A stretch of DNA of 64,000 nt from a virus (IMGVR_UViG_3300050343_000145:3217-67216); one strand, 5' to 3'. Shown: positions 9,296 through 61,304, counted from the stretch's first letter. Numbers and translations: made by a program. Notes: generated by a model from the sequence alone, not told the origin.

Positions 9296-11266
9296 ATGAG
9301 TAAAATACAAAACTACACAAACGATTCGCTTATAAAAGGGTCAGATAAAGTCCTAGGGTCTTCGTTTGAAAACAACTTATGGGTAACTAGAAATTACTCA
9401 ATGAACAGTTTGGCATCATTCTTTGTCAACTATCTAAGCCAGAACGGTGTGAGTTACGATTTAGCATCAATGACAACAGACATTGACACTAATTCTACAA
9501 GCATCAGCACAATAACAACCCAGCAAAGCACAAACACTACAAGTATTGGCGCAAATAGCACTTACAGTACAAATTTAGCCGCTTCATTTGGAACAGCGGA
9601 CGCAAACGGTAACGTAACGAGCTTTTCACAGGCTTTCGCGGATCAAGTTTTCAGTGTTACGGCATCGAATAGATTCGCTACAAGCACATACGCTAACAAT
9701 TTAGCCTCATCTGTGGGTACATACGATGCAAACGGTAATTTACAGAGCATGTCACAGTCATTCGCAAACAGTGTAATGACAACAACAAACGACGCAACCT
9801 TTGCAACGAGCTCATTTGTCAATAATTTAGGCTCTAGCTTTGGTACAGTGGCATCTGACGGTACAGTAACCCTGTCTGTAAGCTTCGCGAATGAAGTTTT
9901 ATCAACAACAACCACTGCGGATTTTGCTTCTACTACATATGTAAACAATTTAGGTAGTAGTTTTGGTACAGTGGCAGCAGATGGAACAGTTACACCCAGT
10001 ATAGCGTTTGCAAATACTAGTCATGAGCCTTGAAACAGTCCACTGATTATGCAGAAGCTTCGGCAGTTACTAGTTTAGGGACTACAGTTGGAAACAATAC
10101 ATCAGCTATTTCAATAAATCAAATCTTCTATAAACGGTGTACGATCAAAATACGGTGTAACATTAGACACAAACGGCGCTTTAACTGGTTTTCAAATTAT
10201 AAGTGGAGCAAATGCACAAAGTGATTTTATTGTAAACGCAGATAATTTTAAAATATACAGCTCAAATGGCGAATTAAGCCCATTTAGTGTTATAACAGAC
10301 GGCAGCACGAGTAAAGTACAAATAAACGGTAACTTAAATGTGTCCGATACGGTCACAATTGAGGGTTCTGGAGATTTTTCTTCCGGTGATGGAAGTATTA
10401 ACGATTTAAACGGTAGACCAACTGCTTTACTTATGAGAGCAGGCGCGGTAGCTGGAGATATTGGTTCAGTTTGTTTAGAAATGCAATCGGATTCAAGATG
10501 GCACCATGTTATAAAAACTACAGGCGGTACAGATGAAGACGGTAACTTTGATTTAAATGCAGAATACAGGTTAGGTAAATCACTTGTGGTAGGTAACGAA
10601 GGGGATAACTTTTCAAGAATAATGATGAAATTGAATGGTGCTGGATTAATAATACCAAACCAAACAGCCAATAGTGTAACGCCTTCACCAGACTACGCAA
10701 GCGGTATGAATATTATATTTAATAATAATAACGGCGGTAGGGATGGAGATTCTGGTAGGTTACATGTTAGCGAATATTATAAAACATTCTTTTTGGATAT
10801 TCCATCAAATCCTTTAACTACAGGGACTTTTGCGGATATAACTTTTGCAATTAGAAAATATGTTCCCGCTGTGGTTGGCCCACCGGCTGTTGATGCTTAT
10901 GAAACTAAGGTGGCTTGGATAGATAATTCAGATGATAGCTGGAACGCAAAGGGAGATGTTAACGGAACAGCTTTTAATATAACATCTGATTACAGGTTAA
11001 AAGAAGACTTCCAATCATTCAATGGTTTAAACATACTTAATAATATAAATGTATACGATTTTAAATGGAAAGATGTAGATGGAATTGAAGGTAAAAGAGC
11101 TTACGGTGTAAAAGCACACGAATTACAAGAGCAAATGCCTTCAGCGGTAACCGGCGAACACGATGGAAATAAAATGCAAAAAGTAGATTATTCTAAATTA
11201 GTGCCTATATTGGTAAAATCTATACAAGAATTACAAGCACAAGTACAACAATTACAAAATCCATAA
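9296..11266 (+). CDS. Tail fibre/spike 1 with C-terminal peptidase S74 chaperone (split by frameshifts at ~10020-10140)
   Basis: Track ORFs 9122..10033, 10030..10224 and 10340..11266 are collinear with the intact paralogue at 11270; SDYRLKEDF...VDYSKLVPILVKSIQEL. Confidence 0.8.
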
Positions 11267-11269
11267 CAT

Positions 11270-14200
11270 ATGGCCAGAATAGAAAGTTACCAAAAAGATA
11301 ATTCTTTACACGAAAAGGATAAACTTTTTGGATCATCTTACATATCTACAAATAACAGCACAGATCAATTTACTACAGGTAATTTTACCCTACAAGATCT
11401 TGCAGAATTTTTTGCTAATTACCAAATATCAGATAATCAGTTATATAATTTTGCCACAATAAGTCAGCAAGTCACAACAAATGTTTCTGATATAGAAGCT
11501 AACGCAACATATTCGTTGAACCTAGGGGCTAGCTTTGGTGCTGTAGATGATGATGGAAACTTAACATCACTTTCCCAGGCTTTTGCAAACCAAGTAATGA
11601 CAGTTACAACTAATGCTCGATTTGCTGAATCAACTTATGCAGAAAACCTAGCTAGTACTTTTGGTACTTTTGACGCAGACGGTAACTTAACTTCACTTTC
11701 AGAAGCTTTTGCTAATAATGTAATGACTACCACAGCATCGGATAGATTTGCTACAACAACATCGGTAAATACATTAACAAGTACAGTTGAGGGCAAGCCG
11801 GATATATTTAGACAAGATGATGCTCCAGCTGTAACAAATGCCGTGGGATCAATATGGTACGATACGAATGATAATAATAAAGTCTACGTTTTATTAGCGG
11901 GAACACCAAATGTATGGACATTAACGTCAGATGACAGAATTATCACTAATTCTACATCTATTTCTAATGTTTCTCAGTCTGTTACAACATTATCTAACTC
12001 TTTAGGTGCGGAAGCTGAATTAATTGATGAATTACAGACGCAATTCACATTTGATACCGAGGGTGGTATAACAGGAACCGCAGATGCACTTGCAACAAGT
12101 ATCACAACAGCGTCGTCCTCAGCAGCGGGTGCCGTAGCTACTGATCTTAATAAATTGGAGGCTGTATTTTCACAAGATTCTAATGGAGACGTAACTGGAA
12201 TAACAGGCGTATTATCTACAGCTGTCACATCTAATGCTAACTCAGCGATAGCAAATGCAAGTTTAGCAACAGCCCAATCAGTTACAGATCTTACATCCAC
12301 AGTAAATGGTAATACTGCTAGTATAAGTACCAACCAAAGTACTATTGCCACAGTAGAGGGATATACAGAATCAAGGTATTCATTAAAACTAGACGCAAAT
12401 GGTTCTTTTGCTGGTATGTCTATACTTGCAAGTAATGGCACTACATCAGATCCTTTTTCAGAAATAAGATTTGTAGCAGATTCATTTAAGGTATACAATG
12501 GGGGTCAAGCTGATTTAACAGGAAGTTACGACGCGCCTTTCGAGGTTGTTGGGGGAGTTGTTAAAATAAAAAGTGCTAACATAGGAAATATTTCGTTTGG
12601 AGATTTAACTAATGTACCAGGAACATTCGTGAGCACAGTAATATATGCAGATGATGCCAGTGGTACAAATGCTTCTGTTTCAAAAGGCAATAATCAAAAC
12701 TTTTTTGCTATAAAACAAGCAAGTACAGCCTGGACAGATGGGGACAGTGTAGCCGGATTAACATTTACACAAATGACAGGAAACACGGGAGCCACAGGTT
12801 CTGCAGGTGCAGATGGCGCAGACGGTGCAAATGGAGCAGATGGAGCAGATGGAGCAGATGGTGCAGACGGAGGAACCGGAGCCACCGGGGCTAGATCTTT
12901 TAGTAGATATTTATTTTATTCAACACCAACAACATCAGCGCCAACGTTTAATTCAAGTGGTATAACTTTTAGTTTTAGTAGTAATTCTTTTAGCAACCTG
13001 CCTACAGGATGGAGTGAAACAGCGCCTGTAGCCACACCAGGATCTGGTAGTAATAATTATTGGCATTTATCAGTTAGTGTTATAGAAGGCTCTACAAATA
13101 CGATAACATTTGGTTCTGTAACTAGAATGTTTGGATTTAGTGGGCTAGTAACTTTTTCAGGAACAACAATAAACGGTGCTTTTGATTATACAGCAATTGA
13201 CGGTAGTGCAATAACAACAGGCTCAATAGAAAGTGGAAACTATGTAGCATTATCGAATAGTGATTTTTCAAGCGCAGGAACTAAAATAAAATTATCAGAT
13301 GGTGCTATTGAATCAAAAAACTTTTATGTAAAAGCAAATGGTGATGCTGGATTTTCCGGTATTATAACTTTAGGAAATACCAATTTAACAGAAAGCAATA
13401 CACTAAATTCGAATACAGCCGCAAGTGATGTTTCGGGATTAGGAGGATTAGCAACAAAAGACACAATAGATGCTACTTCTGCGGATATTACAAATTTAGC
13501 AGCAGTTGCTACAAGTGGTAGTAAAGATGATGTAGGTTTAAATAATGTAGACAACACGTCCGACGCAACAATACTAGCTGGAAATTTAACAGGTACTGTT
13601 GACGGAGCGACGGTTGCAACTGTTAAAAGTGGGGCTGCAGCGGGCGCAACGGCCAACCAAGATAGCACATCAACAATAAGATCTGTAGGAGCAGCAACAT
13701 CTGGTACAATAGCAGGTTGGAAATTAGATGCTAATAATATATATAGTGGCTCTACTCCAGATTCTTCTGGTTTTACCACAGGTGGTATGACTTTAAATAA
13801 AAATGGTTCAATACACGCTAAACAATTTTATATAGACACAAGCGGTAATGCGTTTTTTACAGGAGATATAACAGGGGCCAACGGTACATTTAATGGTGAT
13901 TTAGAAGTTACTGGAACAGCTTTAATAAAAGGATCTGTATCTTCTGGTAATTTTATTGCCGCTAAGTTTAAAAACACAGACACTACCAATAACACAGGCG
14001 CGGGAATATCTCTAAATTCATCTAGCGATTACCATCATAGAATATTAATGACAGGTGGCAATACAGCTTCTTTACCAGATCAAGGCACTGTTTTTGATTT
14101 AAATGCTAGTTATCAATTAGGACAAGACGGGCAATATACCAAACAAATACTCAAAATGAATGGGGCCGGTATAATAATACCTAACCAAACAGCTAACGGT

Positions 14201-15058
14201 ATAACAGCTTCTACTAATTATAGCGGGGGTATGAATATTATATTCAATGACAATAGCGGTGGCAGAACGGGTAGTTCGGGTAGATTACACGTAAATGAGT
14301 ATTACAAAACATTTTTCTTAGATGTCCCCGGTGTCCAGGGGTCTGCTGGCCAGTGGCAAGATAAAGTTTTTGCAATGAGAGCACACAATGGAACAGGTGA
14401 TCAAACTGTTTTTGATGTTGACACTAATAGAAAAATAACAACAGTGGGTGCTTTAGAAGTTGGGGGGAATTTCAACGGACAAAACGGATATTTTGCACAA
14501 GACTTAGGCGTCGGATTTAATTCTGGATCAATTGGGGGTAAAATACAATTAAGAAGGTCTAGTGCTGGTATTGGTATTAAAAACGATTACGGTACTGCAG
14601 GCAGCGGCACAATAGGTTTATTTGGTTATACAGCTTCTAATATGGATACAAGTAATGCGTATCATATGAACTTTCAAGCCGATGATGGTAATGGCGTGAC
14701 TAACATGTTGCTTTGCGACCTTAATGGTAATTTAAGAAATTATTTTAATTCTTACGGTGGCTTTTCTGATGAAAGATTAAAAGAAAACATTACAGACGCT
14801 AGTCCTAAATTGGAAGATATTAAACAGCTGAAGGTTAAAAACTTTAATTTTATAGGAAATGAACTTAAACAAATAGGATTAATAGCGCAAGAGGTCGAAC
14901 AAATATTTCCTGGTTTAGTTGAGGAAACAACAGACCCTGGCCCAAGTGGCGCCGAAGAAGAAGTCGCTTATAAATCTATTAAATACTCTGTATTAGTGCC
15001 AATGCTTATAAAAGCCATACAAGAATTAGAAGCTAGAGTCGCGACATTAGAAGGTTAA
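11270..15058 (+). CDS. Tail fibre/spike 2 with collagen-like segment and S74 chaperone
   Basis: 1262 aa; host-specificity-J-like segment (YSLKLDANGSFAGM...FVADSF), G-X-Y run, SDERLKENI...IKYSVLVPMLIKAIQEL. Confidence 0.88.
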   Translation: MARIESYQKDNSLHEKDKLFGSSYISTNNSTDQFTTGNFTLQDLAEFFANYQISDNQLYNFATISQQVTTNVSDIEANATYSLNLGASFGAVDDDGNLTSLSQAFANQVMTVTTNARFAESTYAENLASTFGTFDADGNLTSLSEAFANNVMTTTASDRFATTTSVNTLTSTVEGKPDIFRQDDAPAVTNAVGSIWYDTNDNNKVYVLLAGTPNVWTLTSDDRIITNSTSISNVSQSVTTLSNSLGAEAELIDELQTQFTFDTEGGITGTADALATSITTASSSAAGAVATDLNKLEAVFSQDSNGDVTGITGVLSTAVTSNANSAIANASLATAQSVTDLTSTVNGNTASISTNQSTIATVEGYTESRYSLKLDANGSFAGMSILASNGTTSDPFSEIRFVADSFKVYNGGQADLTGSYDAPFEVVGGVVKIKSANIGNISFGDLTNVPGTFVSTVIYADDASGTNASVSKGNNQNFFAIKQASTAWTDGDSVAGLTFTQMTGNTGATGSAGADGADGANGADGADGADGADGGTGATGARSFSRYLFYSTPTTSAPTFNSSGITFSFSSNSFSNLPTGWSETAPVATPGSGSNNYWHLSVSVIEGSTNTITFGSVTRMFGFSGLVTFSGTTINGAFDYTAIDGSAITTGSIESGNYVALSNSDFSSAGTKIKLSDGAIESKNFYVKANGDAGFSGIITLGNTNLTESNTLNSNTAASDVSGLGGLATKDTIDATSADITNLAAVATSGSKDDVGLNNVDNTSDATILAGNLTGTVDGATVATVKSGAAAGATANQDSTSTIRSVGAATSGTIAGWKLDANNIYSGSTPDSSGFTTGGMTLNKNGSIHAKQFYIDTSGNAFFTGDITGANGTFNGDLEVTGTALIKGSVSSGNFIAAKFKNTDTTNNTGAGISLNSSSDYHHRILMTGGNTASLPDQGTVFDLNASYQLGQDGQYTKQILKMNGAGIIIPNQTANGITASTNYSGGMNIIFNDNSGGRTGSSGRLHVNEYYKTFFLDVPGVQGSAGQWQDKVFAMRAHNGTGDQTVFDVDTNRKITTVGALEVGGNFNGQNGYFAQDLGVGFNSGSIGGKIQLRRSSAGIGIKNDYGTAGSGTIGLFGYTASNMDTSNAYHMNFQADDGNGVTNMLLCDLNGNLRNYFNSYGGFSDERLKENITDASPKLEDIKQLKVKNFNFIGNELKQIGLIAQEVEQIFPGLVEETTDPGPSGAEEEVAYKSIKYSVLVPMLIKAIQELEARVATLEG
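12779..12895 (+). repeat. Collagen-like G-X-Y repeat (~13 triplets)
   Basis: GNTGATGSAGADGADGANGADGADGADGADGGTGATGAR; 9-bp GGAGCAGAT-type units. Confidence 0.9.
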
Positions 15059-15426: not shown

Positions 15427-16989
15427 ATGGAATATAATAACCCAAGTGAGATAGTAAAAGACCTTTCCTTTGGGAAGGATGCTAGAAATAAAATTATGCA
15501 CGGGGTAGATAAATTGACAAGTGCAGTTAAGTCTACCCTTGGTGCTTCTGGAAAATGCGTTATATATGAAGACGCACTAGGAAGGCCGGTGATCACAAAA
15601 GATGGTGTAACCGTAGCGGAAAGCGTAGTCTTAATCGACCCGGTCGAAAATATTGGCGCAACTTTAATAAAAGAAGCAGCAAGAAATACAGTAAGAGAAG
15701 CGGGTGATGGCACAACAACAGCCACAGTGCTTGCTCATTCATTGCTGCATTTAGCCAATGATCACAAAGACGATAATAACATAAGAGATATTAAAAAAGG
15801 TATTTTAAGTGGCTTAAATAAAGTCAACAAATATCTTGATAAAAAAGCTATTGAAGTAAAAGACAATATGCTCGAAAGTGTTGCAGCAATTAGCTGTAAT
15901 AATGATAAAGCTCTTGGTGGTGTTATATCGCAAGCTTACTCAAAAGTAGGTAAGGATGGTGTTGTCCTTATGGAGGAGTCTGAGACCCATGACACATACG
16001 TAAAATTCGTAGAGGGCACTAGGTTAGACTGCGGACTCAAGTCGCCACATTTTATAACAGATAAGGATAAAGGTAAAGCGGTACTAGAAAATCCGTACGT
16101 ACTGATAGTTTCATCGCCAGTACCTAATATCCGTAAAATACAAAACGTATTGGAGTTTGTTATCAAATCGAAAAGAAGCTTACTGATCGTAGCAGGCGTA
16201 GAACAACAACCTATGGCAGCGTTGCTAGCAAACAAAGTCAAAGGTAATATAAAAGTAAATGTTGTGGATCTGCCTGGATTCGGTCCGACTAAACAAGATA
16301 CAATTGAAGACCTTGCGATATTAACCGGAGCTAAAGTAATGAATGAAGAATTAGGAGATGATCTTGATTTAATTTCACCTGAAGTTTTAGGACAAGCTGT
16401 TTTATCAGTTACAGATGACAAGCATACTGTACTGCAAATAACTGACCAGGGTGTTGTGCTTGATGAACGAATAGAAACAGTTGAAAAGAAAGTTAGAGAA
16501 GAAAAAAATCCATTCTTTAAAAAGAAGTTGCAAGAAAGATTAGCAATGTTGAACGGCCAAGTGGCAATGATTAAAGTAGGTGCGGACTCTAAAGTTGAAA
16601 TGAAAGAAAAGAAAGATAGAGTTGAGGATGCAATATATGCTACTAAAGCAGCGTTGCAAGAAGGTATTGTTCCAGGTGGTGGAGTAGCACTATTAAATGC
16701 TTCTCAAAAAATTAAACCTAACGGTTTGGGTGAGCAAATACTGTTAGAAGCAATTAAATCACCATACAAAACAATAATTGCTAATGCAAATTTACCTTAT
16801 GCGGAATATCCTACGGCAGGAACTGGTATTGATGTTGCAAACGAAGCACCAGTTAGAATGGTTAATAAAGGAATTATTGATCCTGTGTTAGTGACTAAAA
16901 CAGCATTGAAAAATGCAGTTAGTGTGGCTAATACAATATTTTCAGCGGATTGTGTAATTAACAATGTAAGAAGTTATGAAAGCAATTAA
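15427..16989 (+). CDS. groEL: Phage-encoded chaperonin GroEL
   Basis: ITKDGVTVAE, AGDGTTTATVLA, PGFG, EKKDRVEDAIYATKAA, EGIVPGGG, GIIDP motifs; no GGM tail. Confidence 0.97.
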   Translation: MEYNNPSEIVKDLSFGKDARNKIMHGVDKLTSAVKSTLGASGKCVIYEDALGRPVITKDGVTVAESVVLIDPVENIGATLIKEAARNTVREAGDGTTTATVLAHSLLHLANDHKDDNNIRDIKKGILSGLNKVNKYLDKKAIEVKDNMLESVAAISCNNDKALGGVISQAYSKVGKDGVVLMEESETHDTYVKFVEGTRLDCGLKSPHFITDKDKGKAVLENPYVLIVSSPVPNIRKIQNVLEFVIKSKRSLLIVAGVEQQPMAALLANKVKGNIKVNVVDLPGFGPTKQDTIEDLAILTGAKVMNEELGDDLDLISPEVLGQAVLSVTDDKHTVLQITDQGVVLDERIETVEKKVREEKNPFFKKKLQERLAMLNGQVAMIKVGADSKVEMKEKKDRVEDAIYATKAALQEGIVPGGGVALLNASQKIKPNGLGEQILLEAIKSPYKTIIANANLPYAEYPTAGTGIDVANEAPVRMVNKGIIDPVLVTKTALKNAVSVANTIFSADCVINNVRSYESN

Positions 16990-21704: not shown

Positions 21705-24700
21705 ATGGCAAATCGTTTTCTTAGTGATATAAGAATCAACGACGCGTATACTTTTCCCGCGTCAGATGGTAGCAGTGGACAAGTTATCACGACTGATGGT
21801 TCTGGTAATTTATCTTTTGCAGAAGCGGGAACAAGCGATTCGGCTTCCGTAATTTACAGAGATAATTTTACTGGCGATGGGAGTACGGCGTCTTTTGATT
21901 TGCAAAATTCAATTACTGATGAAGATCAAACACAAATATACATAGATGGTGTTTATCAAGAAAAAGATTCGTATTCCGTATCGGGATCAACAATAACCTT
22001 TACAACTGCACCAATTAGTGGTCACAGTATAGAGGTTATTTCTATTTCGGCCATAAACACAGGACCTACGGTTATTTATCAAGATAACTTTACAGGCAAC
22101 GGCTCAGCAACAGATTTTACGTTAGCGAATACTATAGACAATGAAGTTAAAACTTTAATATTTTTAAATGGTGTTTATCAATTTAAAAATACTTACAGTG
22201 TTGACGGAACTACACTTAGTTTTGACACAGCTCCAGTAAATGGGGTGGACATAGAGGTTATTAGTATTGCATCTGCATTACAAACAGACAGTTTGCAAGC
22301 TGGTTCTGTAATTGTGCCTGTAAAAAATACACATACCGCAAGTATAGCCAAAGGAACTCCGGTATACATTAGCGGTAACGTTGGTAATTCAGCAAGATTA
22401 CAAATAGCGCCAGCAGATGCAAGCAATAGCGCTAAAATGCCAGCAGCAGGATTGTTATTAACTACACTTGCTGTAAATGCAGAAGGCTATGCAATTACAG
22501 GTGGCTATTTAAGAAACATTACAACAGACACAATTGATGGCACAAGCACAGCATCAAACGATACTGTATATGTAAAAGCTGGTGGTGGTTTAACAATGAC
22601 AAAACCAACTGGCAGCAATTTAATCCAAAATATTGCTAAAATTGCAAGATCTTCTGGTGGCAATTCAGGTTCGTTATTAGTGTCATCAATACTTAGAACA
22701 AACGATATTCCTAATATTGCTAACGATAATTTTTGGCTAGGTAACTCTTCTAGCGTAGCAACAGCTACATCATTTCCAACAGAAGTTGGTAATTATTTAA
22801 CAACAAACAGTTACGCAACAGAAAACTATGTAGATACAGAAGTTGCAGGGTTAGTTGCTTCGGCTCCTAGCAACGTTAGATACTTTAAACGAACTTGCGG
22901 CAGCATTAGGTGATGATCCTAATTTTGCTACAACTACGGCTACTAGCATTGGAACTAAATTGCCTTTGGCTGGTGGAACACTAACTGGAGCTTTATTAAT
23001 ACAACAATCAAGTACTAGTACTGGGTTTACAACTGAAAAAACAGGGGGTACAGGTTCATTTATTAATTTAAAAGACACTGCAGGTAGTGTTTTTATAGGA
23101 GGAGTTAATTCTGAATTTGTAATACAAACACCTAGTGGTAGTTATTCAAATAAATTAACAATCTCAAACTCAGGAAACGCAACTTTTGCAGGAGATATTA
23201 CAATAGGAAATAATGCCAGTATAAAAAGCGTTGGTAGTGTTAGAATTGATATTGATGAAGATAATAATTCAACTACAAGAGCATTTCTTGTAAGAAATAA
23301 CGGTGGTGCGAATACTTTGTTTAGAGTTCAAGAAGATGGTAGCGTAGGAATCGGAACTGATTCACCTGATTATCTGTTAGATATAGAAGGAGCTAGTCCT
23401 AGAATTAGAGTAAAAGAAACTAGTAGCAATACTTCTACTACTATGGTAGAAGTTGAAAATAGTGATGGTAGAGGCGCTATGCTTGGAGTTGGTGGTAGTG
23501 GTAGAAGTGATATTTTAACTAATAGGGGATATATTAATGCACAAACAGCATTAGATGGTTTGGCTATTGGAACAGAAGGAACAGACCCTGTTATTTTTTA
23601 TACTCAAGGTTTATCTGCATCAAATGAAAGAATGCGTATTACAAGTGGAGGTAACATAGGTATAGGAACAGGTGCCGATGTTTATGGGGATTTACATTTA
23701 GAGGGTGGTCAGCAAGATATAGTATTAACAAACACTTCTGCTGATGGAGTCGCGGGTTTAACAATATCAAGAATTATAGGTCAAGCAAGGGGTTATAGTA
23801 ATACCTCATCAGTCATGCAGTCGATTGATTTTGTAACTAATTCCTCTACTTGGTATAAAGGAGATATTGTATTTAAAACAAATAATACTGACGGTACAGA
23901 TAGTACAGTAGCCGCTTCAGAAAGGATGCGTATAAAAGCTGATGGTAGTATTAATATAGGAGCTAGAAGAGCCGCTTTACCAAGCAATTTTGGTTACAGT
24001 GGATCTTATAAAGTATTAATACTAGGAAGTTCAGGAACAAATTACCAAACAGACGCAGTAACATTATCACTTGGTGTGGATGTAACAGGTAATCCGAGTG
24101 GTGCTTATAATGGAAACGGTAGGGAAATAATTATTAGAAACGAAGGAGCTTTTATATCTCCTAATACTGCTAATAATGGTTACAATACTATTTTGAGCTG
24201 GAATAGTTCTGGGCAACCATATTTTTCTCAAAACGTTGGGATAGGAACAACTGGCCCTAATGCTGATTTAGAAGTTAAGACACTTAGTGGGGGTGTTGGT
24301 GTAAACACATTAAGATTAAATACAAATTTTGCAAATGGAAATACTGTAGATATAAATCCTTTTATAAGTGGACTTAACAACGGGGGAATGGAAATTAAAT
24401 TAGCGGGTTCTCAAAAACTTGTTATGCTTCCATCCGGAGACGTGGGGATCGGAACGGCTTCGCCTGAAAGTAAATTACACGTCTACAAAAATGCAGCAGC
24501 TAGTACAGTTGTAGAATTATTAAGATTAGATTGTGGAGAAAACAGCCATGCAGCAAGTAAGGGAGGAAGTATAGTTTGGAGAGATATAAACGTATATTCA
24601 AATACAGCAAGTATTACTGCTCAAAGAACTGGACTTGGTAGTAGTTCTTCATTACAATTTGGTTTAAGGGGTGGCGAAAAAATGCGTATAACATCTGCGG

Positions 24701-25374
24701 GGGATGTTTTAATAAATGCAACAGGAAGATACAACGGTTATCCAGCAAGTTTCATAACACAAACTTTAGCAAGTGGTTCTGGTGATTTTTGCCCTATTTT
24801 AGAATTAGTAGGGAATAGAAGTGCAGCTCAAGGCAATCAAAATGCAATGATACAATTCTTTAATAAAACATCAACAGCAGTTGAGGTTGGGAGAATTTCG
24901 TCTACACAAGGCTCAGCTACTAATAGTGGTGGTTTAACATTTCACGTTGCTAACGCAGGGTCACTTTCAACGGGGTTATCTATTGGGCAAACAGGTAGAA
25001 TTATACTGCCAGGATTAGATGGAAAAACTCAAGTTCATCCGGATGTAAGTTACCGTACTACAGATGGTGAATTATTTTATCAAACATCTTCAGAAAGATA
25101 TAAAACTGATATAGTAAATCTTGAAAATTCTTTAAATAAGGTTAACTCATTAAGACCTGTTAGATTTACAGATACAAATACTAACGAGCCTGGTTTTGGT
25201 TTGATAGCTGAAGAAACAAATGAAATAATTCCAGAGGTAGTATTTACTAAAGATGAACAAATTGAAGGAATAAGTTATTCTAATTTAGTTCCTTTCCTAA
25301 TTAAATCAATACAAGAACTAAAAGCAGATAACGATAGCTTAAAAGCTAGGATAGAAACGTTAGAAAATAATTAA
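21705..25374 (+). CDS. Tail fibre 3 with S74-type chaperone (single frameshift near 22867)
   Basis: Track ORFs 21705..22913 and 22855..25374 join to give ...LVASAPATLDTLNELAAALGDDPNF; FTGDG repeats, VGIGT repeats, SSERYKTDI. Confidence 0.85.
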
Positions 25375-25375
25375 T

Positions 25376-27647
25376 ATGGCACAAACTAAAGTAAAACTTA
25401 TATCAGACGGCGTAATAGTCCAGAGTAATTTACATGCTAGCCACGGTATAACTACCGCACATATTGGTGAGGGTAGCAATTTGTATTACACAGATGCTAG
25501 AGTAGGTTCTTACTTGTCTACAAATAGTTTTGCTACAGAAAGCTATGTAAGTACACAGATAACTAATTTAGTTGATTCGTCACCTGCAACTCTTAATACA
25601 CTTAATGAATTAGCCGCTGCTCTTGGAGACGATCCAAACTTTGCAACAACTACAGCAACAAGTATCGGGTTAAAAGCTCCATTAGCATCACCTAGTTTTA
25701 CAGGAAACTCAACTTTTGCAGGTCCTATATATTTACTAAACACAAGTGCAAGAATTAGTGCGGGTGGTAGCGGGGAGGTTGGGTTCAGATAATTATAACA
25801 CCGGCGCAACTGGTAGTTTAGTCTGGTATGGAGGTGGAACTGCCTCTAAATTTAATGTGACAAGTGCTGGAAATGCAACTTTTGCAGGGCTTGTAAACAT
25901 ACCCGCTGCAGCAGATGGAACTAAATTTACAATAACATCTTCAGCAGGTTCAAATCATAACATTATAGAAATGGGTCAATTAGGCTCAGATGGATTTTTA
26001 GATGTATCAGCAGCAGGCGGTGGAGTAGTAAGTCATTTGTCAGGTTACACAGGATATGCAAGTTATTTTTTATCACAAGTAGGAATCGGAACGGCTTCGC
26101 CTACTAATGCAAAATTAGTAATTTCTGATACTGGCTCAAATAAAATATCTATTGATGGAGGAACTTCTCAAAACGGTATGAGATGGGAGGCGGTTGGGGG
26201 CGCTAATGGTTTTTATTTATTCAATGGTACTTTTGGTACCGCTGGATTTGGATTATACAATATAAACACAGCACAAGCATTACTTTGGATTCAAAACGGA
26301 GGAAACGTCGGGATTGGAACGACTTCGCCTTCATCAAAGCTGCAAATACAAGCAAATCAACACGCAACTAACCCTGGTGGTAAAAATTACACTGGATCTG
26401 CAATAAATGCTGATGGAGGAGATATAGCAACTGGAAAATTATTTTTGCAAGGTTATCAAAATACAGCAAATGACTTGTGTGGGTTTAACAATGAAGCAAA
26501 CAGAGTTGTATTATATAATTACACAGATGGTAGGCATTTGCAGCTTTGGAATCATACTGGTGATACTTCTATACCTAATGGCAGCGTCGGGATCGGAACG
26601 ACTTCGCCTAGCACTAAATTAGTAGTAGCACAAAGTAATGTAACGGAGCCAAGTGGTGTAGATGCTAATACAAGTATATTAATTAAGAACAATACTTGGT
26701 CAGGAATGACTTTACTTGCAACCTCAAGTACAGGAAGTTTTCTAACATTTGGAGATGAAAATGCAGGATTTGCAGGTAGAATACAATATATTCACTCTAA
26801 TGATAATATGATTTTTGAAACTGCAGCAACAGAAAGAATGCGTATTCTTGGTGATGGAAGCCAAACACAAATAAAAGGTAAACACGGCGGTGGTGCAGAT
26901 TTATTATTATATAATACAGATGTAACCCTTGCTACTGACCAAATGATAGGTAGGTTAGGTTTTTATAAAACTGATGGTAGTGGTTCTAATGTAGGGGTTT
27001 CAAGTTCAATACAAGCACGAGCTACTAATAGTGGGTCTGGTTCTTATATGAGTTTTCATACAGATGGTGAAACTCCTGCAACACAAGAAGCAGAAAGAAT
27101 GCGTATTACAAGTAGCGGCAAAACTTTAATGGGTATTACAAGTGAGCAAAATGCTGGTAAATTACAAATGCAATCGGGTGGGTTTGAAAATGGTGGTACT
27201 TTAGATATTGTAACAGGTGGTTGGTATAGATATTATACCAGGGTATGCCATAATGCAACATCAGCCAGTACTGCGGGATATTGGCATATAAAAACAAACA
27301 TAATAGTAAACACAAACGTGATGTTTATGGCTAAATTTTACGGCTATATATATGGATCAGCTCAAGTTTTAGACCTTACACACGCAGGATATGCTTATAG
27401 CGGCAGTAATAGTATTATAAATCAAGGTACAACAAATAACGGAAGTGACCCTAATGCTAGCAGCGCAATATACTCGTCTGCAACTGGCAATAAAGTAACT
27501 TTTAGAATTGCTTTTGGGACTGGTAGTACTTTTTCAACTTACTTTTGTGGGGTGATGATGGATATGGCATTTCCAGCTCCAGCTGGACAAGGTCATGATT
27601 TTGAAATTGAAGCACAAACGTTTAGCCAAAATACAACGGTATATTAA
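25376..27647 (+). CDS. Tail fibre 4 (single frameshift near 25790)
   Basis: Track ORFs 25376..25792 and 25746..27647; NLYYTDAR and TLNELAAALGDDPNF anchor, VGIGTTSP repeats. Confidence 0.85.
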
Positions 27648-27664
27648 AATAAACAAATAAATAA

Positions 27665-30190
27665 ATGGCAAATACTAAAGTAACAGGTGATTTAATAGCG
27701 AGCTCAACGATAGCTACAGGTAACATAGCGGATAACGCAGTTACTAGCGATAAAATAAGCGGGATTACAACAGCTCATATTACTGAAGGTGCTAACTTGT
27801 ATTATACTGATGCTAGAGCAGATGCTAGAGCTGCTTTATTAGTTGATTCAGCGCCTAGTACTTTAAATACATTGAACAAATTAGCTGCGGCGTTGGGTGA
27901 TGACCCTAATTTTGCTACAACAGTCACTAATTCAATAGCAACTAAATTGCCTCTTGCTGGGGGTACGTTAACTGGAGCACTGCAGGCTCAACCTTGGTTA
28001 TTTAGACAAATGTCTAATCAAGTTGAATATCACGTGTTGGACAACGGAAACCTAAACGGGCCTAGCTGGAAATTTAGGTACGATGGCACTACGTCCAATA
28101 GATATGTTGATTTTGGATTTAAAGATGGCGCGGGTAATTATGTTTCCGGTTTAAAACTACATAATAACTCAACTGTATCTTGGAGAGGGGCTGATATAAT
28201 AAATGGCAATGCTCAATGGGTAGGGGACATAAACACCTCAGCCTCTATACAAACTGGAGCAATTGAGGCTTCAGGAAATGTAACCGTAGGTAATAGTGGT
28301 AATATTAATATTCCAACTGCCTCTTCAGGAAATGCAAATTTACATTTTGATGGCACTGATTTTAAAATAACATCAAATTCATCTTCGGCTAATTTAAAGC
28401 TAGAAACAAATTCAACTACAAGATTAACTATAAATAACGCCGGAAATGTGACTTTAAATAGTGCAACTGATTTAGATTTTCAAGTAGCTGATTTTGCACA
28501 AATTAAATTTAGAGAATCTGGCGCTATAATGATTGATTCAGACAATAACCAATCAAGTAGAAACTTTTCTATAAAAGATGGTGATGGAACAAATTTATTA
28601 CTAATTACAGATACTGGAAATGCAACTTTTGCAGGTGAAGTATCTTTAAAATCAAGATTGAATTTACAGAGGTCAAGTGGTGGTGCAACAACTTTAATAC
28701 AATTTAAAAATGAAAATGGTGTAGATAGGGCACATATTGATTTTGGGGGGACAAATGAAGAATTAAGTTTTTTTTCAGGTTCAGGTGGCTCAGAACATAT
28801 GCGTATAGACGGTTCTGGAAACGTAGGAATTAATAATACAAACCCTTCAGCTTTTAATTCACTTGGGGGATTACAAACAGTTATAGGAAATGGAAGTGCA
28901 AATGCTAATTTAACTTTATATGGTGCATCTACAGATTATTCTCACGTTGCTTTTGCTGATTCAAGTACTTCAAGTTCAAGTGCTCAATACGCAGGATTAT
29001 TACAATATTATCACGTTGACAATAGTTTAAGAATTTATACTAATTCAATAGAAAGAATGCGCATTACAAGCGGTGGAGATATTCAAGTTCAAGGGGGAGA
29101 TATATTTTTAAACAGTGGAACAAATTATAATGACAAAGGTGTTGTTTATTTATCTAATGAAAGAACAGCAATAATTTCTGATATTGTAAATGCAACTGCT
29201 AATGGGGACACAAGTTTAGATTTTCAAACAAGAAAAGGTGGAACGAGAGCTTCGGCTATGTATATTGATGAATTTAGAAACGTAGGAATCGGGACGACAT
29301 CACCTAATTTTAAATTAAATGTTCATCGTTCTGATTCTACAAATACTACTATTGGAATAACTAATTCATCAACTGGGGATGCAAGATTGTATTTTGACGC
29401 CTCAAATGGCGATGGGGCTGGTAGTGATTATATGCAAATGGGGCAACAGAATGATCTATCAGGATTTATACAAATGGAACAAAGTGCAGGTTCGTTTAAT
29501 ATTAAAACTGGTCCAGGTGGCTCTGATAGATTAACTGTTTTGCAAGGCGGCAACGTAGGAATTGGAACGACTTCGCCTAATAATGGTAAACTAGAAGTTC
29601 AGCAAACCGCAATAACTCCTGCTCTATGGGTACAAACAGGAGGAACAACTGATACTTATTATATAGCAGATTTTAGAACAGGAACTAATGCTTCTGCTCT
29701 TGCTATAAAAGGTAATGGAAGAGTAGGCGTGGGAGAATCATCCCCAGCGGAAAAATTAGAAGTAAACGGTAATATAAAAGCTGGTGATACAACCGGTAAA
29801 TTTTTTACCAATGTATATACAGCTACCACAGCCTCTACTGCTGATACGTTTTCTAGTAGTGGCCCTGGTGTATGGGAATATATAATAAAAATGAATCCAA
29901 ACCCAGCCGGCTCGGGGTCATATACAGATTTTTATTATGGCAAATTAGGTATAGGTACAGGGTGGAATGGTAACGTAACAGATTACATTTGGTATCAAGA
30001 AGATCAAACAGCACCTAGAACTCTTTATCCTTCTGGTGGAGGTAATAAAACAATATCTTTTGTTATGGTTAGTGGAGGATCGGAAGTTACAAGTGTATCT
30101 CATGGAACAACTGTTACTATTAGAGTAAAAGGTTTTGGTGGTAATTCATATAATCAAAATATATCTATATTTTTCAGAAGGCTAGCATAA
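27665..30190 (+). CDS. Tail fibre 5
   Basis: 841 aa; same anchor and GNVGIGTTSP/ERMRI repeats; distinct C-terminal head. Confidence 0.88.
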   Translation: MANTKVTGDLIASSTIATGNIADNAVTSDKISGITTAHITEGANLYYTDARADARAALLVDSAPSTLNTLNKLAAALGDDPNFATTVTNSIATKLPLAGGTLTGALQAQPWLFRQMSNQVEYHVLDNGNLNGPSWKFRYDGTTSNRYVDFGFKDGAGNYVSGLKLHNNSTVSWRGADIINGNAQWVGDINTSASIQTGAIEASGNVTVGNSGNINIPTASSGNANLHFDGTDFKITSNSSSANLKLETNSTTRLTINNAGNVTLNSATDLDFQVADFAQIKFRESGAIMIDSDNNQSSRNFSIKDGDGTNLLLITDTGNATFAGEVSLKSRLNLQRSSGGATTLIQFKNENGVDRAHIDFGGTNEELSFFSGSGGSEHMRIDGSGNVGINNTNPSAFNSLGGLQTVIGNGSANANLTLYGASTDYSHVAFADSSTSSSSAQYAGLLQYYHVDNSLRIYTNSIERMRITSGGDIQVQGGDIFLNSGTNYNDKGVVYLSNERTAIISDIVNATANGDTSLDFQTRKGGTRASAMYIDEFRNVGIGTTSPNFKLNVHRSDSTNTTIGITNSSTGDARLYFDASNGDGAGSDYMQMGQQNDLSGFIQMEQSAGSFNIKTGPGGSDRLTVLQGGNVGIGTTSPNNGKLEVQQTAITPALWVQTGGTTDTYYIADFRTGTNASALAIKGNGRVGVGESSPAEKLEVNGNIKAGDTTGKFFTNVYTATTASTADTFSSSGPGVWEYIIKMNPNPAGSGSYTDFYYGKLGIGTGWNGNVTDYIWYQEDQTAPRTLYPSGGGNKTISFVMVSGGSEVTSVSHGTTVTIRVKGFGGNSYNQNISIFFRRLA

Positions 30191-48013: not shown

Positions 48014-51000
48014 ATGGCAGATCCAAAATTAAATGAGCAATTACTGGAGCTGCAGGAACAAGTAAATCAACTTAAACCTACAGATAACTCTCAAGAAGCT
48101 ATATTACTCAGAAGGCAATTAAAGAAAGTTGAAGCGCAAATTGTAGCATCGGAAACAACTGAAACTCAAGAATTAGAAGAGGTTGAGGTAACTGTAGACG
48201 CTAAAGGTGATGTTAAAACCGCTTTAGACGGTGCAAAGCAATACAAGGAAGACATAAAAAAAATAACACCCGAAACTGAAAAAACAAAAATAGGGTATGA
48301 ATATTTTGGTCTTAAAATGTATGATACTTTAAAGCCACAAATAGAAAGAGATACTTATTATCCTGATTTACCAGGCGGTAGAAAATCTGGTTTTATTAAA
48401 TATAGAAACACATACGATGAAGATTTAAAAAAATCATTGGGTGATAAAAAATATGAAGAGTGGAAAAAAATTGAAGCAGGCGCAAAAGCAGACGGTGTTA
48501 GACTTAATGAAACAAATATAAATAAATATTTAAATTTAAGTGATTTTGATAACAAAACAAAAAATGAAATTGTTCAGCAATCTAAAAGTAAAAAATCTGA
48601 TTTAATATTAAGAGATTATAGTAACAAAGAAAGAAATATTATTAAAAAAGAAATATTTGAAGGTGAGGCTAAAGAAAAAGCTTATGAAGAATACTCAAAT
48701 ACTTTTAATAAAAATTTAGAAGAATATAAAAAAACAGGTGTTCCACAATTTGAACAACCTGATTATACCCCTATTGTAAAAGAATTAAATGAAGAAGTTA
48801 AACAATCATCTAAAAATCTTGATACAAAATTTGATAATTTTAAAATAAAGCAAGAGGAGTACAATAATACATATAAAAACTACGAAAAAAGAATAGCAGA
48901 GGCAGAAGAAAAAATTAAAAATTTTAGTATGCCTGAAAACCCCACTGTAGCCCAAATACAAGAACGTAACGCATTAGCAGAAGAATACAATAATATATTC
49001 AAAGAAGATTTATTTACTGGTTTAGATAATCAATGGCAAGACTTAAAAGCTTTTGGCACTGAAATAACTAATGAATCAGAAAAATTAAATAAAGCTTCTT
49101 TAGAAGTTGGTGATATTAATTTAATGAGTAATTCATTAAGCAAGAATTACAATAGAATGGACAGACTTTTGCACACCATGGAAGAATCTTTTTTGGGTAG
49201 TGCTGCTATGCTTGGGTCGTCTATAATGAAGGGAGGAGGGGATGTTGCTGCATTTTTTGCTAGCAGTAATAATTATGATGCAAAAACAGCTGATTGGTAT
49301 CAGGATTTAGTAGATTTAAAAGGCCATGCGATTGATTATAACGATCGTTTGCAGAAGTATAGACAAAATGTATTGCCTGAAAAATTAGAGTACGGCGATG
49401 GAGGTGGTTTTGATTATTTTGCAGAAATGATGATTGATAATAGCCCTTCAATATTAACTGCTTTTGGAACAATGGGTTATACGGGTTTAGCAACAGCTGG
49501 GGCTTCTGGAATAGCAAGAGCCACTGCCATACGGCAAGCAACAAACGCTGCAACAGGCGTATTCTTTACTATGGAAGCTGGTGGTCAAATGTCTAATCTT
49601 GAAATAGCACAAAGAGAAGCTCCTGAAATGATAGCGTCTTTAAAAAATAAATTAAAGAACGAAACTAATTTATCAAAAAGAAAACAATTAGAAGAGCAAA
49701 TATCAGATCAAGAGAATTTGCAGAAAATGTCCCAGTTTAAAAAGAGCTTTAACAGTATAGCTTACGGAGGTATTGCTTCGCTTGCAGAAAGATTTGGTTC
49801 ATTAAGATTCATAAATGATTTTCAAAAATATTCAAAACCTTTAGGATTAACCAAGTTAGAACAATTAGGAATTCCTAAATCAGTAGCTAGAGTTACAGGT
49901 AAAGCTTTTGGTACCACGTCTGGTGTTGGTATTGGTATGGGGGTAGAATTAATAGAGGAAGGTGGCACATTGTTAGGACAAAATTTCATGGATATTGTTG
50001 TTTTAGATCAAAATAAAAGTTTGATTGAAGGATTAGATGGCGAATTTGTAAGAAATACTTTAGCAACATCTTTAGGTATATCAGGGCCTTCTGCGAGCAT
50101 GAATTTAATGTCAGCATTTAATAATGAAATAAAATTAAGAAGTGAAGCTAATCAAGAAGGAAAAATCAGAGATGAGGTGCTTGCTATACAAAATGAATTA
50201 AATGTTTTAGATGGAAGAACAAAGAAAGCTAGAGATTTAAAGAAAAAACAAAATTTATTATTAACTGAAGCAGCGGAAGTAAATAGCTTTATACCTTTAA
50301 AGCTTGGTAATATGACAGATGCAGAAGTTCAAAGCGTTTTTGAAAATGGTAAAAGAATGCGTGAATTGATAGCTGAAGGAAAAGAATTAGGCCAGCAGCT
50401 GGAGATCACATCGTACGAAAAGCAACGAGTTGAGGATATAAAAAACCAAATTCAAACGTTATTTGATGTTAATCAAAAAACATTAGGTAAATCACAGGAA
50501 CAATATTTAAAAGAAATAGGAAAAGACGCACCAAATGCTTTTGAATATGTTGTTAATAAGGGGAGATATGATGGCTATAAGCACTTGATTAAAAACATGA
50601 AAGGTATAACTCTTTTTGCAACTGATGGCAAAAATATTGATCAATTTCTTGAACAATCAAATTATACAGATCAACAAAAAGAAGATATAAAAAATGCTTA
50701 TAATGATAGATCTAATGCTGTAAATATAAATGATGATGTTATAACTTTTGATGATAATGTTACAGCTTCTTTAAGTATATTAAGCGGAACAAAAGCCGCT
50801 ATAACAGCTGTTTCACCATTGCATGAAGTTGGGCATATACAAACTAGAAAAGCGGGTATAATAAAAGATGGCAAATTAGCCGCTCACGCAGAGGGAATGG
50901 TTGAAGACATAATTGCTGATGTAAAAAGACGAAACGAAAATGATAAATTATCTGATTCTGATTTTCAAATATTTAATGATAGAATAAATGATTATAAAAG

Positions 51001-54000
51001 TAAAAATGGCGAAGTTAATGCTGATGAGCTTATACAATTAGTATCTGATTTTACAGCAGCTGGTATTTTACCTAAAAGTTCATTTGAACAATTATACAGT
51101 GCTAAAACTTTTATTAATTCTTTATTAACTAAATTTAATGGAGAGGCATCGCCTTTCTTTAAAATAAATACAGCTAATGATGCGTTTGATTTTATTACTA
51201 GCTGGCAGCAAAAAGCATTAACTTCACAAACGGAAGGTGCAGGAGAGGAAACAGATGTTGTAGAAAGTAAAGACTTACAAAGTGAAATAAATAGTCTTGT
51301 AGCAGGCGTAACAACGCAGGCAGAATATTATGGTAAATTAAATAATGTAATAAACGAAAAATATGGTTATGATATTACAGAAGATCAAAGCAGAAGTGCT
51401 AAATTACATCCTGCAATAAATAATTATATTATATCAAAATCTGCTAATCCTGCTCAAGCACAAAAAAATATATCTATATTAAAAGATAGATTAATAAATT
51501 TTAATCCTGCTGCAAAAAGAAATGATGGATCTATAGTTGGAGCTGAAGGTTTTGTTGAATTTATAAATTCAAATGTTAATTTTGTAAAAAGAGAAGCTAA
51601 TAAAGCTTTAGCTATAGAAGCAGAACAAAGAAAAAGAACTGAAAAAATAGATGACACAACTAAACAAATAGCAGCACCAATAGAAACTAAAAAAGCTAAA
51701 GAAAAACCAAAATATAAATCTATTTCAAAAAGCAACATATTTTCAACATCAGCAATTGATCAAATTAAAAATAGAATAATATCTATAGTCAGAGTATTAA
51801 AAACAAAAATAAACGCACCAACTACAATAAATCAAACTGTTAAACCTATTATATCAGAAATAAAAACCGAAATGGGTAAGCAAGCTGATATTATAATTAA
51901 AAAAGATGCTGGCGGATTACAAAATAATAGATTAGAAAAAGTATTTTTAAAATCAAAAAAAGCTACACTAGAAAATGCGCCTACCACTTGGCTTGCTAAA
52001 GCAATGCCTTTTGCTGTTCAGAAATCTGTTGGCGGTAAATTTACAGACATACCTATTTTAAACGAATCAGGTAAAATAATTGGCTATGAATTTCAACCAA
52101 ATTGGACTAGCGATTGGCAAGGAAAGAAAATAGATAGAGTAAAAACAGCTGTTGGCGGACAAACATCAGGTAATCAATATATAAGAAGAAAGCCAAATGT
52201 AAGTGAGGCTGTTTCGGATAAGCAGTATATGGGGTACATGTTCAAATTTGACAATGGAGGCAATGCTACAGAAATTATAAGGGGTAGAAAAGAATCATGG
52301 TCAAAAATGATGGCCGAGGAGGTATCATTTGAATTAATAGATGACGCATTAGATGATTTAAATAGCCCTATTTCAAAAGAGCTTATAAAAAATCAAACAA
52401 GATTAGGTGTTGAAATTGTAGAAAATTTTGCTCAACAAGTAAGAAAAGACATTGATAGAGGTACGGTAAAAGAAAGCAAAGGCTTAGCTAGCTTTTCACA
52501 AGAGCAAATGGATCAGTATATAAATGCTGAAGCATGGGGCAACTTTAAAAATAAAATACAAGGCATACAGGGAAGATTTAAAGAAAATGTTATATATAGA
52601 TTACATAAGGACTCTTATGGCGAAATATATTCAGATAAATTGCAAAAAGAAATTGCTAAGCAATTTTATGTGAAGCTAAAACCTTTTGCTACGGTTGAAT
52701 CTATTGAAACTCAATTAAAAGAAGACAATAAATCATTGCCAGAATTTTTAGAAGATATTAGGGGCCAAATAGATTTTAATGAAACAATTAGACAATTTAC
52801 AGGGGCAGAGGCGTCTATTGCAGAATTAAATGATAATAAAGTATATGTAGCTGAAACACAACAATATTTGATAGATCAATTAAAGGGTGTTGATATACAA
52901 ACTGCCGTAGCATTTTTTGCTAGCACATTTGCTAACTCTGGTAAAATTGGTAGAGATAGAAAAGGTGTAATGACTGGAGTTAGTAGGGCTGATTTATTTT
53001 ATAATCAAGCTCATGCTATAACCGCACTTAATGAAGCTGGTTTTAATATTGACAAAATAACTAAAAAAGATATAGTATTAAAAGATGGTACCGTTATACC
53101 TAGAAAATTTACAGCTAATGCTAAAGTAGAACAAAAACATTTAGACGGAACATTAGATGTAGATAAAGAAATTAAAATAGCAGGCAAGGCTTGGGATTTT
53201 ACGATGAAATTACTTGAAGGACTAAAAGGACAACCCTCTTATGTGCAAGCATTAACACTAGCCGCGTTAAATTCGGGTACCAATACCATGCTACGAGTTG
53301 GCGCTCCAGCTATTAATGTTAGTACTACAATAACTTCTAGAAAACCATCTGACTATAGATATGAGCATAGACCACCCGCAAGAGTTGTTTTAGCATTATC
53401 CTATAAAAATAAAGTACTAGGTGACAAAACAATAGATATTGAAGCTTTAAAAAATGATTATCAAGTTTCTATTATACCTGTAGAAATGGATAAAGTAATA
53501 GGTAAAATTGCATTGGGGCAAAGCACAATGCCAGACTATAAACCTGGAATCACCCGTGCAACTAATGATTATTATAATGCTTTTACAAAAAATAAACCTG
53601 GTATAGTTTCTATAAAAAATCTTAAAACAGGTGAAATAATTGGTAAAGATTATGAGGCTTCGTCCAAACTAAAAAATCAACCTACAATAAAAGAGGCTGT
53701 TGCACAACCTAAACAACTCAAGGAAGCAGTTGCAAAAGAAAGTAAAGGATTTTTAAGTGAAGAAATTAATAATATAATTGCTAGGCAAAAAGGTGTTAGA
53801 CCTGAGGCTGTGTATTCTAAAGTTGTGGCAAGAAAAAAAGGCGCTAACATAGGTAAATACAAATTCTTTTTACCATCTACAGCTGAAGATTTTAGAGGAT
53901 TAACGCAATACACTTTTGCTGGTAAAGGAAAACAAGGGGAGGCAGATCAAAAGTTTTTTGAAGATAATTTAGTTAAACCTTATTTGAAAGGTATATCAGC

Positions 54001-61157: not shown

Positions 61158-61304
61158 TCATTGTATCATTATAAGATCTTTCCATTTTAAATAGCCTCTC
61201 TTGTTTACTGACCATTTAATATACGTGTCTATTTTACGTTCTTTATATTTCCTTCGAGCTAAATGCTTTCCGGCGTTTTTATTAATTGTATTACCTGATC
61301 GCAT
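61158..61304 (-). CDS. Small basic protein (48 aa)
   Basis: Manual translation MRSGNTINKNAGKHLARRKYKERKIDTYIKWSVNKRGYLKWKDLIMIQ. Confidence 0.45.
   Translation of the reverse strand: MRSGNTINKNAGKHLARRKYKERKIDTYIKWSVNKRGYLKWKDLIMIQ

Follow-up and report, generated by a model that had tools for sequence, protein, structure and literature searches.

Conserved DNA boxes as probable crossover points for module exchange in three tail-fibre genes of an uncultured marine phage

Tail fibres determine which bacteria a phage attacks. Here we analysed a 64,000-nucleotide (nt) stretch of viral DNA (hereafter the window), which covers bases 3217-67216 of the 67,216-base IMG/VR record IMGVR_UViG_3300050343_000145, rated complete, and focused on three tail-fibre genes, fibres 3, 4 and 5, at 21705-30190. 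Short DNA boxes recur along these genes between segments that are dissimilar in DNA, and comparison with related genomes suggests that the boxes probably serve as crossover points at which fibre modules are exchanged. That the unusual synonymous spelling of the boxes is maintained by or for recombination is a separate proposal, which we hold with much lower confidence.

Three fibre genes share three families of boxes

The fibre genes and the boxes that they carry are as follows.

21705-25374, + strand: fibre 3; open reading frames 21705-22913 and 22855-25374, 1222 amino acids (aa) when one extra letter near 22868-22870 is ignored
25376-27647, + strand: fibre 4; open reading frames 25376-25792 and 25746-27647, 755 aa when four extra letters at 25786 are ignored
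27665-30190, + strand: fibre 5; 841 aa
23173-23193, + strand: box (a), GGAAAYKCAACTTTTGCAGG, encoding GNATFAG
25703-25723 (GNSTFAG), 25869-25889 and 28616-28636, + strand: further copies of box (a), matches to the DNA pattern
23626-23640, + strand: box (b), GAAMRNATGCGYAT, encoding E(R/K/H)MRI
starting at 23920, 24676, 26832, 27093, 28793 and 29051, + strand: further copies of box (b), matches to the DNA pattern
23344-23367, + strand: box (c), GTNGGRATYGGRAC..TCRCCT, encoding VGIGTxSP
starting at 24442, 26079, 26307, 26586, 29282 and 29555, + strand: further copies of box (c) conserved in DNA, matches to the DNA pattern
22882-22935, 25598-25651 and 27869-27922, + strand: N-terminal box, TLNELAAALGDDPNFATT, a border box absent from the list of the original prediction
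22960-22995 and 27947-27982, + strand: LPLAGGTLTGAL, a further border box after the N-terminal box
25673-25705, + strand: KAPLASPSFTG, a further border box after the N-terminal box
24979-24996, + strand: SIGQTG, a degenerate stretch whose likeness to box (c) was read by eye from the peptide

The original prediction, made from the sequence of the window, had proposed the three families (a), (b) and (c), and all three were recovered in the DNA: four matches for box (a) (0.00 expected from shuffled sequences), seven for box (b) (0.04 expected) and seven for box (c) (0.00 expected), five of the last ending in ACGRCTTCGCCT. As protein, box (c) occurs 11 times, the four additional copies (23656, 24235, 29723 and 29945) being written in ordinary codons, and the box copies recognizable at the protein level number 22 across fibres 3-5. 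A six-frame scan of the whole window located the three box peptides only in the fibre genes at 22855-30190. The region 10340-15058 contains two more fibre genes, of 308 and 1262 aa, whose C-termini are S74-type. The same scan found none of the three peptides in them, which restricts the box system to fibres 3-5.

Fibre 3 is laid out as an N-terminal anchor, a shaft of box-bounded modules and a C-terminal Peptidase_S74 chaperone (PF13884, E = 1.8e-9, 38.2 bits against a cut-off of 22). A Pfam profile search found no S74 domain in fibres 4 and 5 and no family for the repeat, yielding only Peptidase_S74, a weak N-terminal DUF4183/T7-tail match and one sub-threshold match. The main border between the conserved anchor and the variable shaft is the N-terminal box, where many alignment ends fall, as do borders in near-identical genome pairs. 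Its DNA matches Escherichia phage Av-05, Pelagibacter phage Kolga and Roseobacter phages CRP-1, -2, -3 and -9 at 71-78% identity, a blastn search of the fibres against named phages gave matches at this box only, and its peptide also occurs in the solved tail collar fibre 9d93 gp4.

The segments between the boxes of the window had been predicted to be unrelated. This holds for DNA, at which level they have no similarity to each other, but not for protein, as several pairs are remote paralogues with 24-38% identity over 65-105 aa.

Module borders in related genomes fall at the boxes

A search with fibre 5 itself gave one locus, and we therefore gathered relatives through the conserved gene upstream of the fibres, which yielded 81 loci, 58 after removal of near-duplicates. 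Alignment of 22995-30190 to these 58 loci by blastn gave 254 high-scoring segment pairs, 100 of them of at least 100 nt, and their ends were merged into one cluster when within 12 nt of each other. Over the whole region, 14 of the 47 end clusters lie no more than 5 nt from a box (9.4% expected, P = 7e-5). In the shafts alone, a restriction chosen after seeing the data, the fraction rises to 14 of 25 at 5 nt (10.9% expected, P = 5e-8) and 17 of 25 at 12 nt (P = 6e-9), so that mosaic borders cluster in the boxes as had been predicted. Further ends at 24981 and 28442 sit on stretches that were read by eye as degenerate boxes (SIGQTG and GNVTLN, respectively); the first of these opens a 92%-identical block shared with locus L014.

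Inspection of the borders revealed that identity falls from approximately 100% to 20-40% inside a box in all six ungapped views (loci L014, L032, L013, L027, L085 and L009). The shared modules include 23343-23651 (97% identical in L014), 26305-26600 (95%, L032), 26556-26846 (96%, L013), 26079-26332 (95%, L009) and 28621-28841 (95%, L027). In relatives that share modules of 94-97% identity, the conserved upstream genes are only 70-86% identical. At 70% identity, the 166 inter-box segments of the 59 genomes group into 158 clusters, and in each of the three clusters with at least two observed right-hand neighbours, the neighbours differ. The strict box pattern skips degenerate boxes (VGIGE, VGINNPN, GATFAG and SIGQTG), and the counts of segments and of near-identical pairs are thus conservative.

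Near-identical genomes preserve joints inside boxes

The clearest joint comes from loci L007 and L009, the backbones of which are 98.7% identical over 10.9 kb and the fibres of which are alike only in patches. In L009 (11581-12120), two copies of ERMRIDS(S/L)GNVGIG enclose a single additional 73-aa unit, where L007 (12031-12075) has only one box. The 5′ side of this one box corresponds to the first L009 copy and the 3′ side to the second, with the switch falling within 18 shared bases, which is what unequal exchange between two direct copies of a box would be expected to leave behind. In other near-identical pairs, the fibre breaks occur at VGIGT, ERMRI, VGIGE, VGINNPN, GATFAG or the N-terminal boxes TLNELAAALGDDPNFA and KLPLAGGTLTG, the degenerate forms having been assigned to box families by eye.

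Modules are also found in other fibres, as the original prediction had anticipated. L007 carries a fibre-3 module and a fibre-4 module of the window behind a fibre-5-type N-terminus, L032 a fibre-4 module behind a fibre-5-type N-terminus and L029 a fibre-4 module in the preceding fibre.

Because the relatives are all assembled contigs, we considered whether the mosaic could be produced by assemblers jumping between co-occurring strains at the repeated boxes. The record of the window has two frameshifts without counterpart in the contigs of other runs, one of them where variant spellings appear to meet, as such jumping might produce. The boxes, however, share only about 15-40 bases, less than the word length with which most assemblies finish. 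Furthermore, the same arrangements recur in different metagenomes (L007/L008, 99.8% identical over 13.4 kb; L016/L017, 99.9% over 7.0 kb; L010/L039, 100% over 3.3 kb). Parts of the 7.6-kb fibre stretch were found in runs of 20 studies of seawater, estuary and viral metagenomes, and contigs of run X4, from another study, bridge boxes of the window with 0-1 differences (22944-23629, 23618-24339, 26459-27694 and 29050-29714). The module order of the window is therefore not an accident of one assembly, and we regard an assembly artefact as very improbable.

Among the 24 contig loose ends listed, 10 lie within 10 nt of a box (23175, in two rows, 23179, 23193, 23625, 23640, 26324, 26580, 27091 and 29545); 429 further ends exist. 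Contig joints between boxes were considered as deletion variants and given no weight, their short side measuring only 20-34 letters, which shows no more than that the box word adjoins other sequences in those metagenomes, and contig bins of little or no cover (for example, 24732-24985 in run X12) are uninformative.

The two frameshifts lie near 22868-22870 in fibre 3 and at 25786 in fibre 4 (extra letters 25786-25789). Twelve of the 14 alignments to relatives cross 22868-22870, each one letter shorter and in frame, and the other two start just past it. Contigs one letter shorter at this position are present in all four metagenome runs compared, and at 25786 every covering contig in three runs is without the four letters. 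Dropping the extra letters restored frames of 1222 aa for fibre 3 and 755 aa for fibre 4, and the two frameshifts are interpreted here as errors of the record or rare variants. The frameshift in fibre 3 directly precedes the TLNELAAALG box, at an apparent junction between two alternative spellings of the same codons.

The boxes coincide with structural elements of a solved relative

Fibre 3 aligns to Bdellovibrio Bd2133 (8OND chain A) with E = 2.2e-6 over three aligned stretches, and the alignment spans the unit SERMRIDTSGNLGLGTAAPTSALHV, that is, box (b) followed by box (c). A unit of the form ERMRI...GN(L/V)G(L/I)GT..P...LHV is common to the two proteins. In fibres of the MAT family, to which Bd2133 belongs, capping loops with the consensus V-G-G/N-pi-x-x-P-x-x-x-L edge a trimeric beta-helix, the fold is related to the T5 L-shaped fibre and the K1F endosialidase, and some members are without S74, according to the sections of Caulton et al. 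2024 (PMC10769870) on these points. Most copies of box (c) agree by eye with this consensus (for example, VGIGTASPESKLHV and VGIGTTSPSSKLQI). As in S74 fibres of this kind, a Peptidase_S74 chaperone ends fibre 3, unlike fibres 4 and 5. The sections of PMC10769870 on the motif handle it structurally, with no reference there to DNA-level conservation or crossover points. Because the inter-box segments are remote paralogues, fibres 3-5 are best read from their sequences as chains of a degenerate repeat of 55-105 aa with the boxes as its conserved cores, and the boxes would be first of all structural motifs.

This raises an alternative in which the boxes are only structural, recombination takes place anywhere, by illegitimate or ordinary homologous exchange in which the boxes have no role at the DNA level, and the clustering of borders reflects the survival of joints that happened to fall at the borders of folding units. 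The coincidence of the boxes with structural elements of a solved relative and the paralogy of the inter-box units as copies of one repeat would both be expected in that case, and border clustering by itself cannot separate mechanism from selection. A purely structural role leaves unexplained, however, the position-specific synonymous conservation described below. The L007/L009 joint, too, lies inside 18 identical bases with the flanking variants kept on each side, as in homology-guided exchange. We therefore consider it unlikely that structure is the whole explanation.

Synonymous positions in the boxes are conserved

We then compared codon choice inside the boxes with that of the non-fibre genes of the window, in which CGT and CGC account for 8% and 3% of Arg codons, ATC for 8% of Ile, ACG for 8% of Thr and TCG for 6% of Ser. 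The Arg of MRI in box (b) is CGY in all seven copies, six CGT, as the original prediction had it, and one CGC (11% background, P = 2e-7). In box (c), the Ile of VGIGT is ATC in 5 of 10 copies (8% background, P = 6e-4), the Thr is ACG in 6 of 10 (8%, P = 4e-5) and the Ser of SP is TCG in 5 of 8 (6%, P = 4e-5), so the CG-containing codons of the boxes are, as expected, rare elsewhere in the genome. These tests were picked after seeing the data, and replication was sought in the relatives and in an IMG/VR sample.

In the 58 relatives, CGT encodes the Arg of MRI in 46 of 64 instances (12% background). In box (c), ATC encodes the Ile in 64 of 137 (6%), ACG the Thr in 60 of 137 (6%) and GGA or GGG the second Gly in 128 of 137 (44%); all 21 Thr codons of box (a) are ACT (33%). 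For the IMG/VR sample we used a fully degenerate, codon-neutral pattern for ERMRITSGGN(V/I)GIGT, which matched at least 120 stretches, from which 80 loci with 84 true instances were kept. Among the matches listed on contigs of less than 38% G+C, the Arg is CGN in 36 of 42 instances, although AGR makes up 81% of Arg codons in the same reading frames. Removal of all loci with any blastn or tblastn link to the backbone of the window left, among the matches listed, 34 instances at 29 loci of less than 40% G+C, in which CGN still encodes the Arg of MRI in 26 of 34 (21% background, P = 7e-12).

Two sets of controls did not account for this pattern. In ten backbone genes (GroEL and others) of the same genomes, CGT is used at 16% in columns conserved in at least 95% of sequences versus 8% in variable columns, whereas ATC (6% vs 6%) and ACG (7% vs 7%) are unchanged. 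Outside the boxes, neighbouring codons have no such effect: CGT makes up 13% of Arg codons after Met, ATC 7% of Ile codons before Gly and AAC 23% of Asn codons before Val. Synonymous conservation above codon bias, as had been predicted, is thus seen in the window, in the relatives and, among the matches listed, in the IMG/VR sample. Recent duplication, which was considered as its source, was set aside since the flanks of the boxes are without DNA similarity.

Across the codons of box (c), the G+C fraction at third positions (GC3) is 0.56, 0.28, 0.22, 0.47, 0.32, 0.46, 0.08, 0.64 and 0.06, against a background of 0.19. Uniform G+C enrichment, from biased gene conversion or a G+C-richer donor, therefore fails as the whole story, given swings from 0.64 to 0.06 at adjacent codons. 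From this codon-by-codon alternation it follows that the conserved entity is a particular DNA word, AT-ending codons included, rather than a composition. Two further explanations were rejected: CpG creation suits many of the enriched codons and fails for ATC before ACN and GGC before AAY, and off-frame stop avoidance or antisense coding, for which ATG-CGT and ATG-AGA were compared by eye, left no long overlapping frame.

An alternative is that the unusual codons are kept for translation, for accuracy or for a pause at residues important in beta-helix folding, and have nothing to do with recombination. Highly expressed bacterial genes often favour CGT, ATC and AAC. The CGN excess at the unlinked loci also fits such selection, as it is found in 45-base words that all differ from each other (34 of 34 among the matches listed). 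By contrast, equally conserved residues of GroEL and other backbone genes are hardly shifted, ACG, TCG, GGA and GTC are not usual favoured codons, and neighbouring AT-ending codons are equally fixed (ACT in 21 of 21; GC3 of 0.06-0.08 at two codons of box (c)). In addition, AGA encodes the first Arg of ERMRI in 40 of 41 instances in this phage group, whereas CGN does so in 21 of 34 at the unlinked loci (among the matches listed), a difference that looks like lineage-specific DNA words. Translation as the reason for the codons appears to us rather doubtful.

If phages simply shared identical DNA, CGY would not be predicted to recur at one Arg in unlinked phages; its recurrence is compatible with selection on the codon itself or with a very wide exchange network. 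In the latter case, the box words would form a shared, self-maintaining recombination interface in a wide network of AT-rich aquatic phages, in which modules that carry the common word would be picked up more often and synonymous sites would be held by selection for module mobility. Such a network would account for the appearance of these unusual codons (CGY at the Arg of MRI, ACG, ATC and GGA) at matching motif positions in phages with no detectable backbone relationship; we put it forward tentatively, as something that may be true but that we would not expect to be. Literature searches found no report of a synonymous-codon signature at fibre motifs, and none of the papers listed by a search on the motifs, all on unrelated subjects, contained VGIGT, GNVGIGT or NVGIGTT.

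In the SGG part of the motif in the IMG/VR sample (34 instances among the matches listed), GGA encodes the two Gly residues in 3 of 34 and 1 of 34 instances, respectively, versus 35% background. Avoidance of the Shine-Dalgarno-like word GGAGG is a possible reason; the window copy at 23626 reads GGAGGT.

Recombination functions encoded by the phage

The first bases of the window belong to a gene that could supply the activity for such exchanges.

1-253, - strand: first 84 codons of a gene for an ERF-family single-strand annealing protein, the remainder of which lies upstream of the window in the same record

The corresponding 191-aa open frame matches PF04404 with 104.9 bits against a cut-off of 25 (G000:C1:3023-3457(-)). 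Its product is a plausible candidate, and only that, for the enzyme acting at the boxes. A small protein encoded at 61259-61750 on the - strand weakly matches a Holliday-junction resolvase/endonuclease family (phrog_190, E = 1.1e-10) and could be another recombination function alongside ERF.

Repeated short sites inside tail-fibre genes are a hallmark of inversion systems, and the boxes could in principle be the sites of a dedicated generator of variation, either site-specific inversion (shufflon or Gin/Cin/Min type) or a diversity-generating retroelement. Every box match is, however, in direct orientation on the + strand, and modules differ between genomes rather than occurring as rearranged copies inside one genome. 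In the complete 67,216-base record, a search for reverse transcriptase (RVT_1) gave no match, although control genomes did match, and neither did a search for serine invertases (Resolvase); tyrosine recombinases were not searched for. With direct repeats only and neither family found, an inversion system or retroelement dedicated to the boxes is excluded within the reach of these searches, in line with the original prediction, and we give such a generator next to no credence. Short-homology recombination is the simplest mechanism.

A model of module exchange

We propose that fibres 3-5 are paralogues of the trimeric beta-helix type, each built as a chain of degenerate repeat units of 55-105 aa. 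Each unit would retain GNATFAG, ERMRI and the capping loop (N)VGIGT(T/A)SPxxKL, while the DNA between these motifs has diverged beyond recognition; the boxes would therefore be the sole stretches of 15-40 bases common to units, fibres and phages. Recombination on box homology, with the ERF annealing protein of the phage itself as a candidate enzyme, would join units in frame and in structural register, so that whole modules could be replaced, inserted or deleted between paralogous fibres and between co-infecting phages. Receptor-binding fibres would thereby vary without reverse transcriptase or invertase, with a presumed effect on host range. In the least secure step of the model, repeated exchange would homogenize the boxes, and modules with the common word would spread better.

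Several observations weigh against this model. Over the whole region, box-sited clusters are only 14 of 47, most of the others falling in conserved N-terminal parts, and even in the shafts 11 of 25 clusters lie more than 5 nt and 8 of 25 more than 12 nt from a strict box, with ends at 26891, 28188 and 28921 that have no box. Sharing is rare, as only seven of the 158 segment clusters have at least two members, and the case rests on about a dozen events. Every comparator is a metagenome assembly, the border evidence is comparative and the role suggested for ERF comes from the presence of its gene. Under any mechanism, the joints that survive selection for functional fibres would be found at structural borders. 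As for the spelling of the boxes, 4 of the 11 box-(c) copies of the window use ordinary codons, and the recurrence of CGN in boxes that otherwise differ looks more like codon selection than like shared DNA identity. Taking these points together with the joints described above, we still consider it probable that the boxes are crossover points for module exchange in fibres 3-5.

Relation to known systems

The principle of exchange is that already known from the T-even phages, where His boxes of gp37 and glycine-rich motifs (GRMs) of the gp38 adhesin are conserved between hypervariable segments and exchange yields chimeric adhesins, as set out in the relevant passages of Trojet et al. 2011 (PMC3157838), which cites Tetart et al. 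1998. Short conserved motifs alternate with hypervariable segments in both cases. The motifs here are GNATFAG, ERMRI and VGIGT..SP, they lie in an S74/MAT-type beta-helix shaft as opposed to the gp38 core described in those passages, and three paralogous fibres draw on one set of boxes. The T-even crossovers came, by the same account, from crosses, whereas the evidence here is comparative and concerns an uncultured marine phage. What is new here is the motif family, the use of one box set by three fibres, joints resolved at the base level in natural genomes and the synonymous-codon signature.

A second parallel is the mosaicism that De Paepe and colleagues reportedly attributed in 2014 to relaxed recombination by phage annealing proteins (Rad52-like, ERF and Red-beta). 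Here, too, the phage encodes its own annealing protein, judging by the presence of the gene, and short or imperfect homology would suffice for exchange between diverged genomes.

Inversion systems and shufflons (Gin, Cin, Min and Rci), which use short repeated coding sites, and retroelements vary the receptor-binding end of fibres. In contrast, the repeats here are direct, no serine invertase or reverse transcriptase was found in the record, and variation lies between genomes rather than in switching inside one.

The record and its relatives provide an unusually clean natural example of fibres rebuilt from interchangeable parts, with three fibres per genome, a very large module pool and joints readable to within a few bases. 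If the box words guide exchange, they should predict the joining points of natural and engineered chimeric beta-helix fibres, and the synonymous-site signature would allow recombination interfaces to be sought in metagenomes from sequence only. Should the exchange network considered above exist, the boxes would amount to a sequence-level standard for the exchange of parts among phage fibres.

Genome and likely host

The window has a G+C content of approximately 33-36%. The + strand carries late genes, among them those for a GroEL-like chaperonin, the large subunit of the terminase and the portal. The - strand carries early genes, among them those for a sigma factor, DNA ligase, ribonucleotide reductase and thymidylate synthase. 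The terminase is 45% identical to terminases of Flavobacterium podophages, and its remaining named matches are all to Cellulophaga, Tenacibaculum and Maribacter phages; a marine member of the Flavobacteriia is therefore the likely host. A 2640-aa open reading frame at 48014-55936 has no PHROG match at E <= 1e-5. The GroEL-like chaperonin gene, at 15427-16989 (phrog_5725, E = 1.4e-136), lies between two sets of tail-fibre genes.

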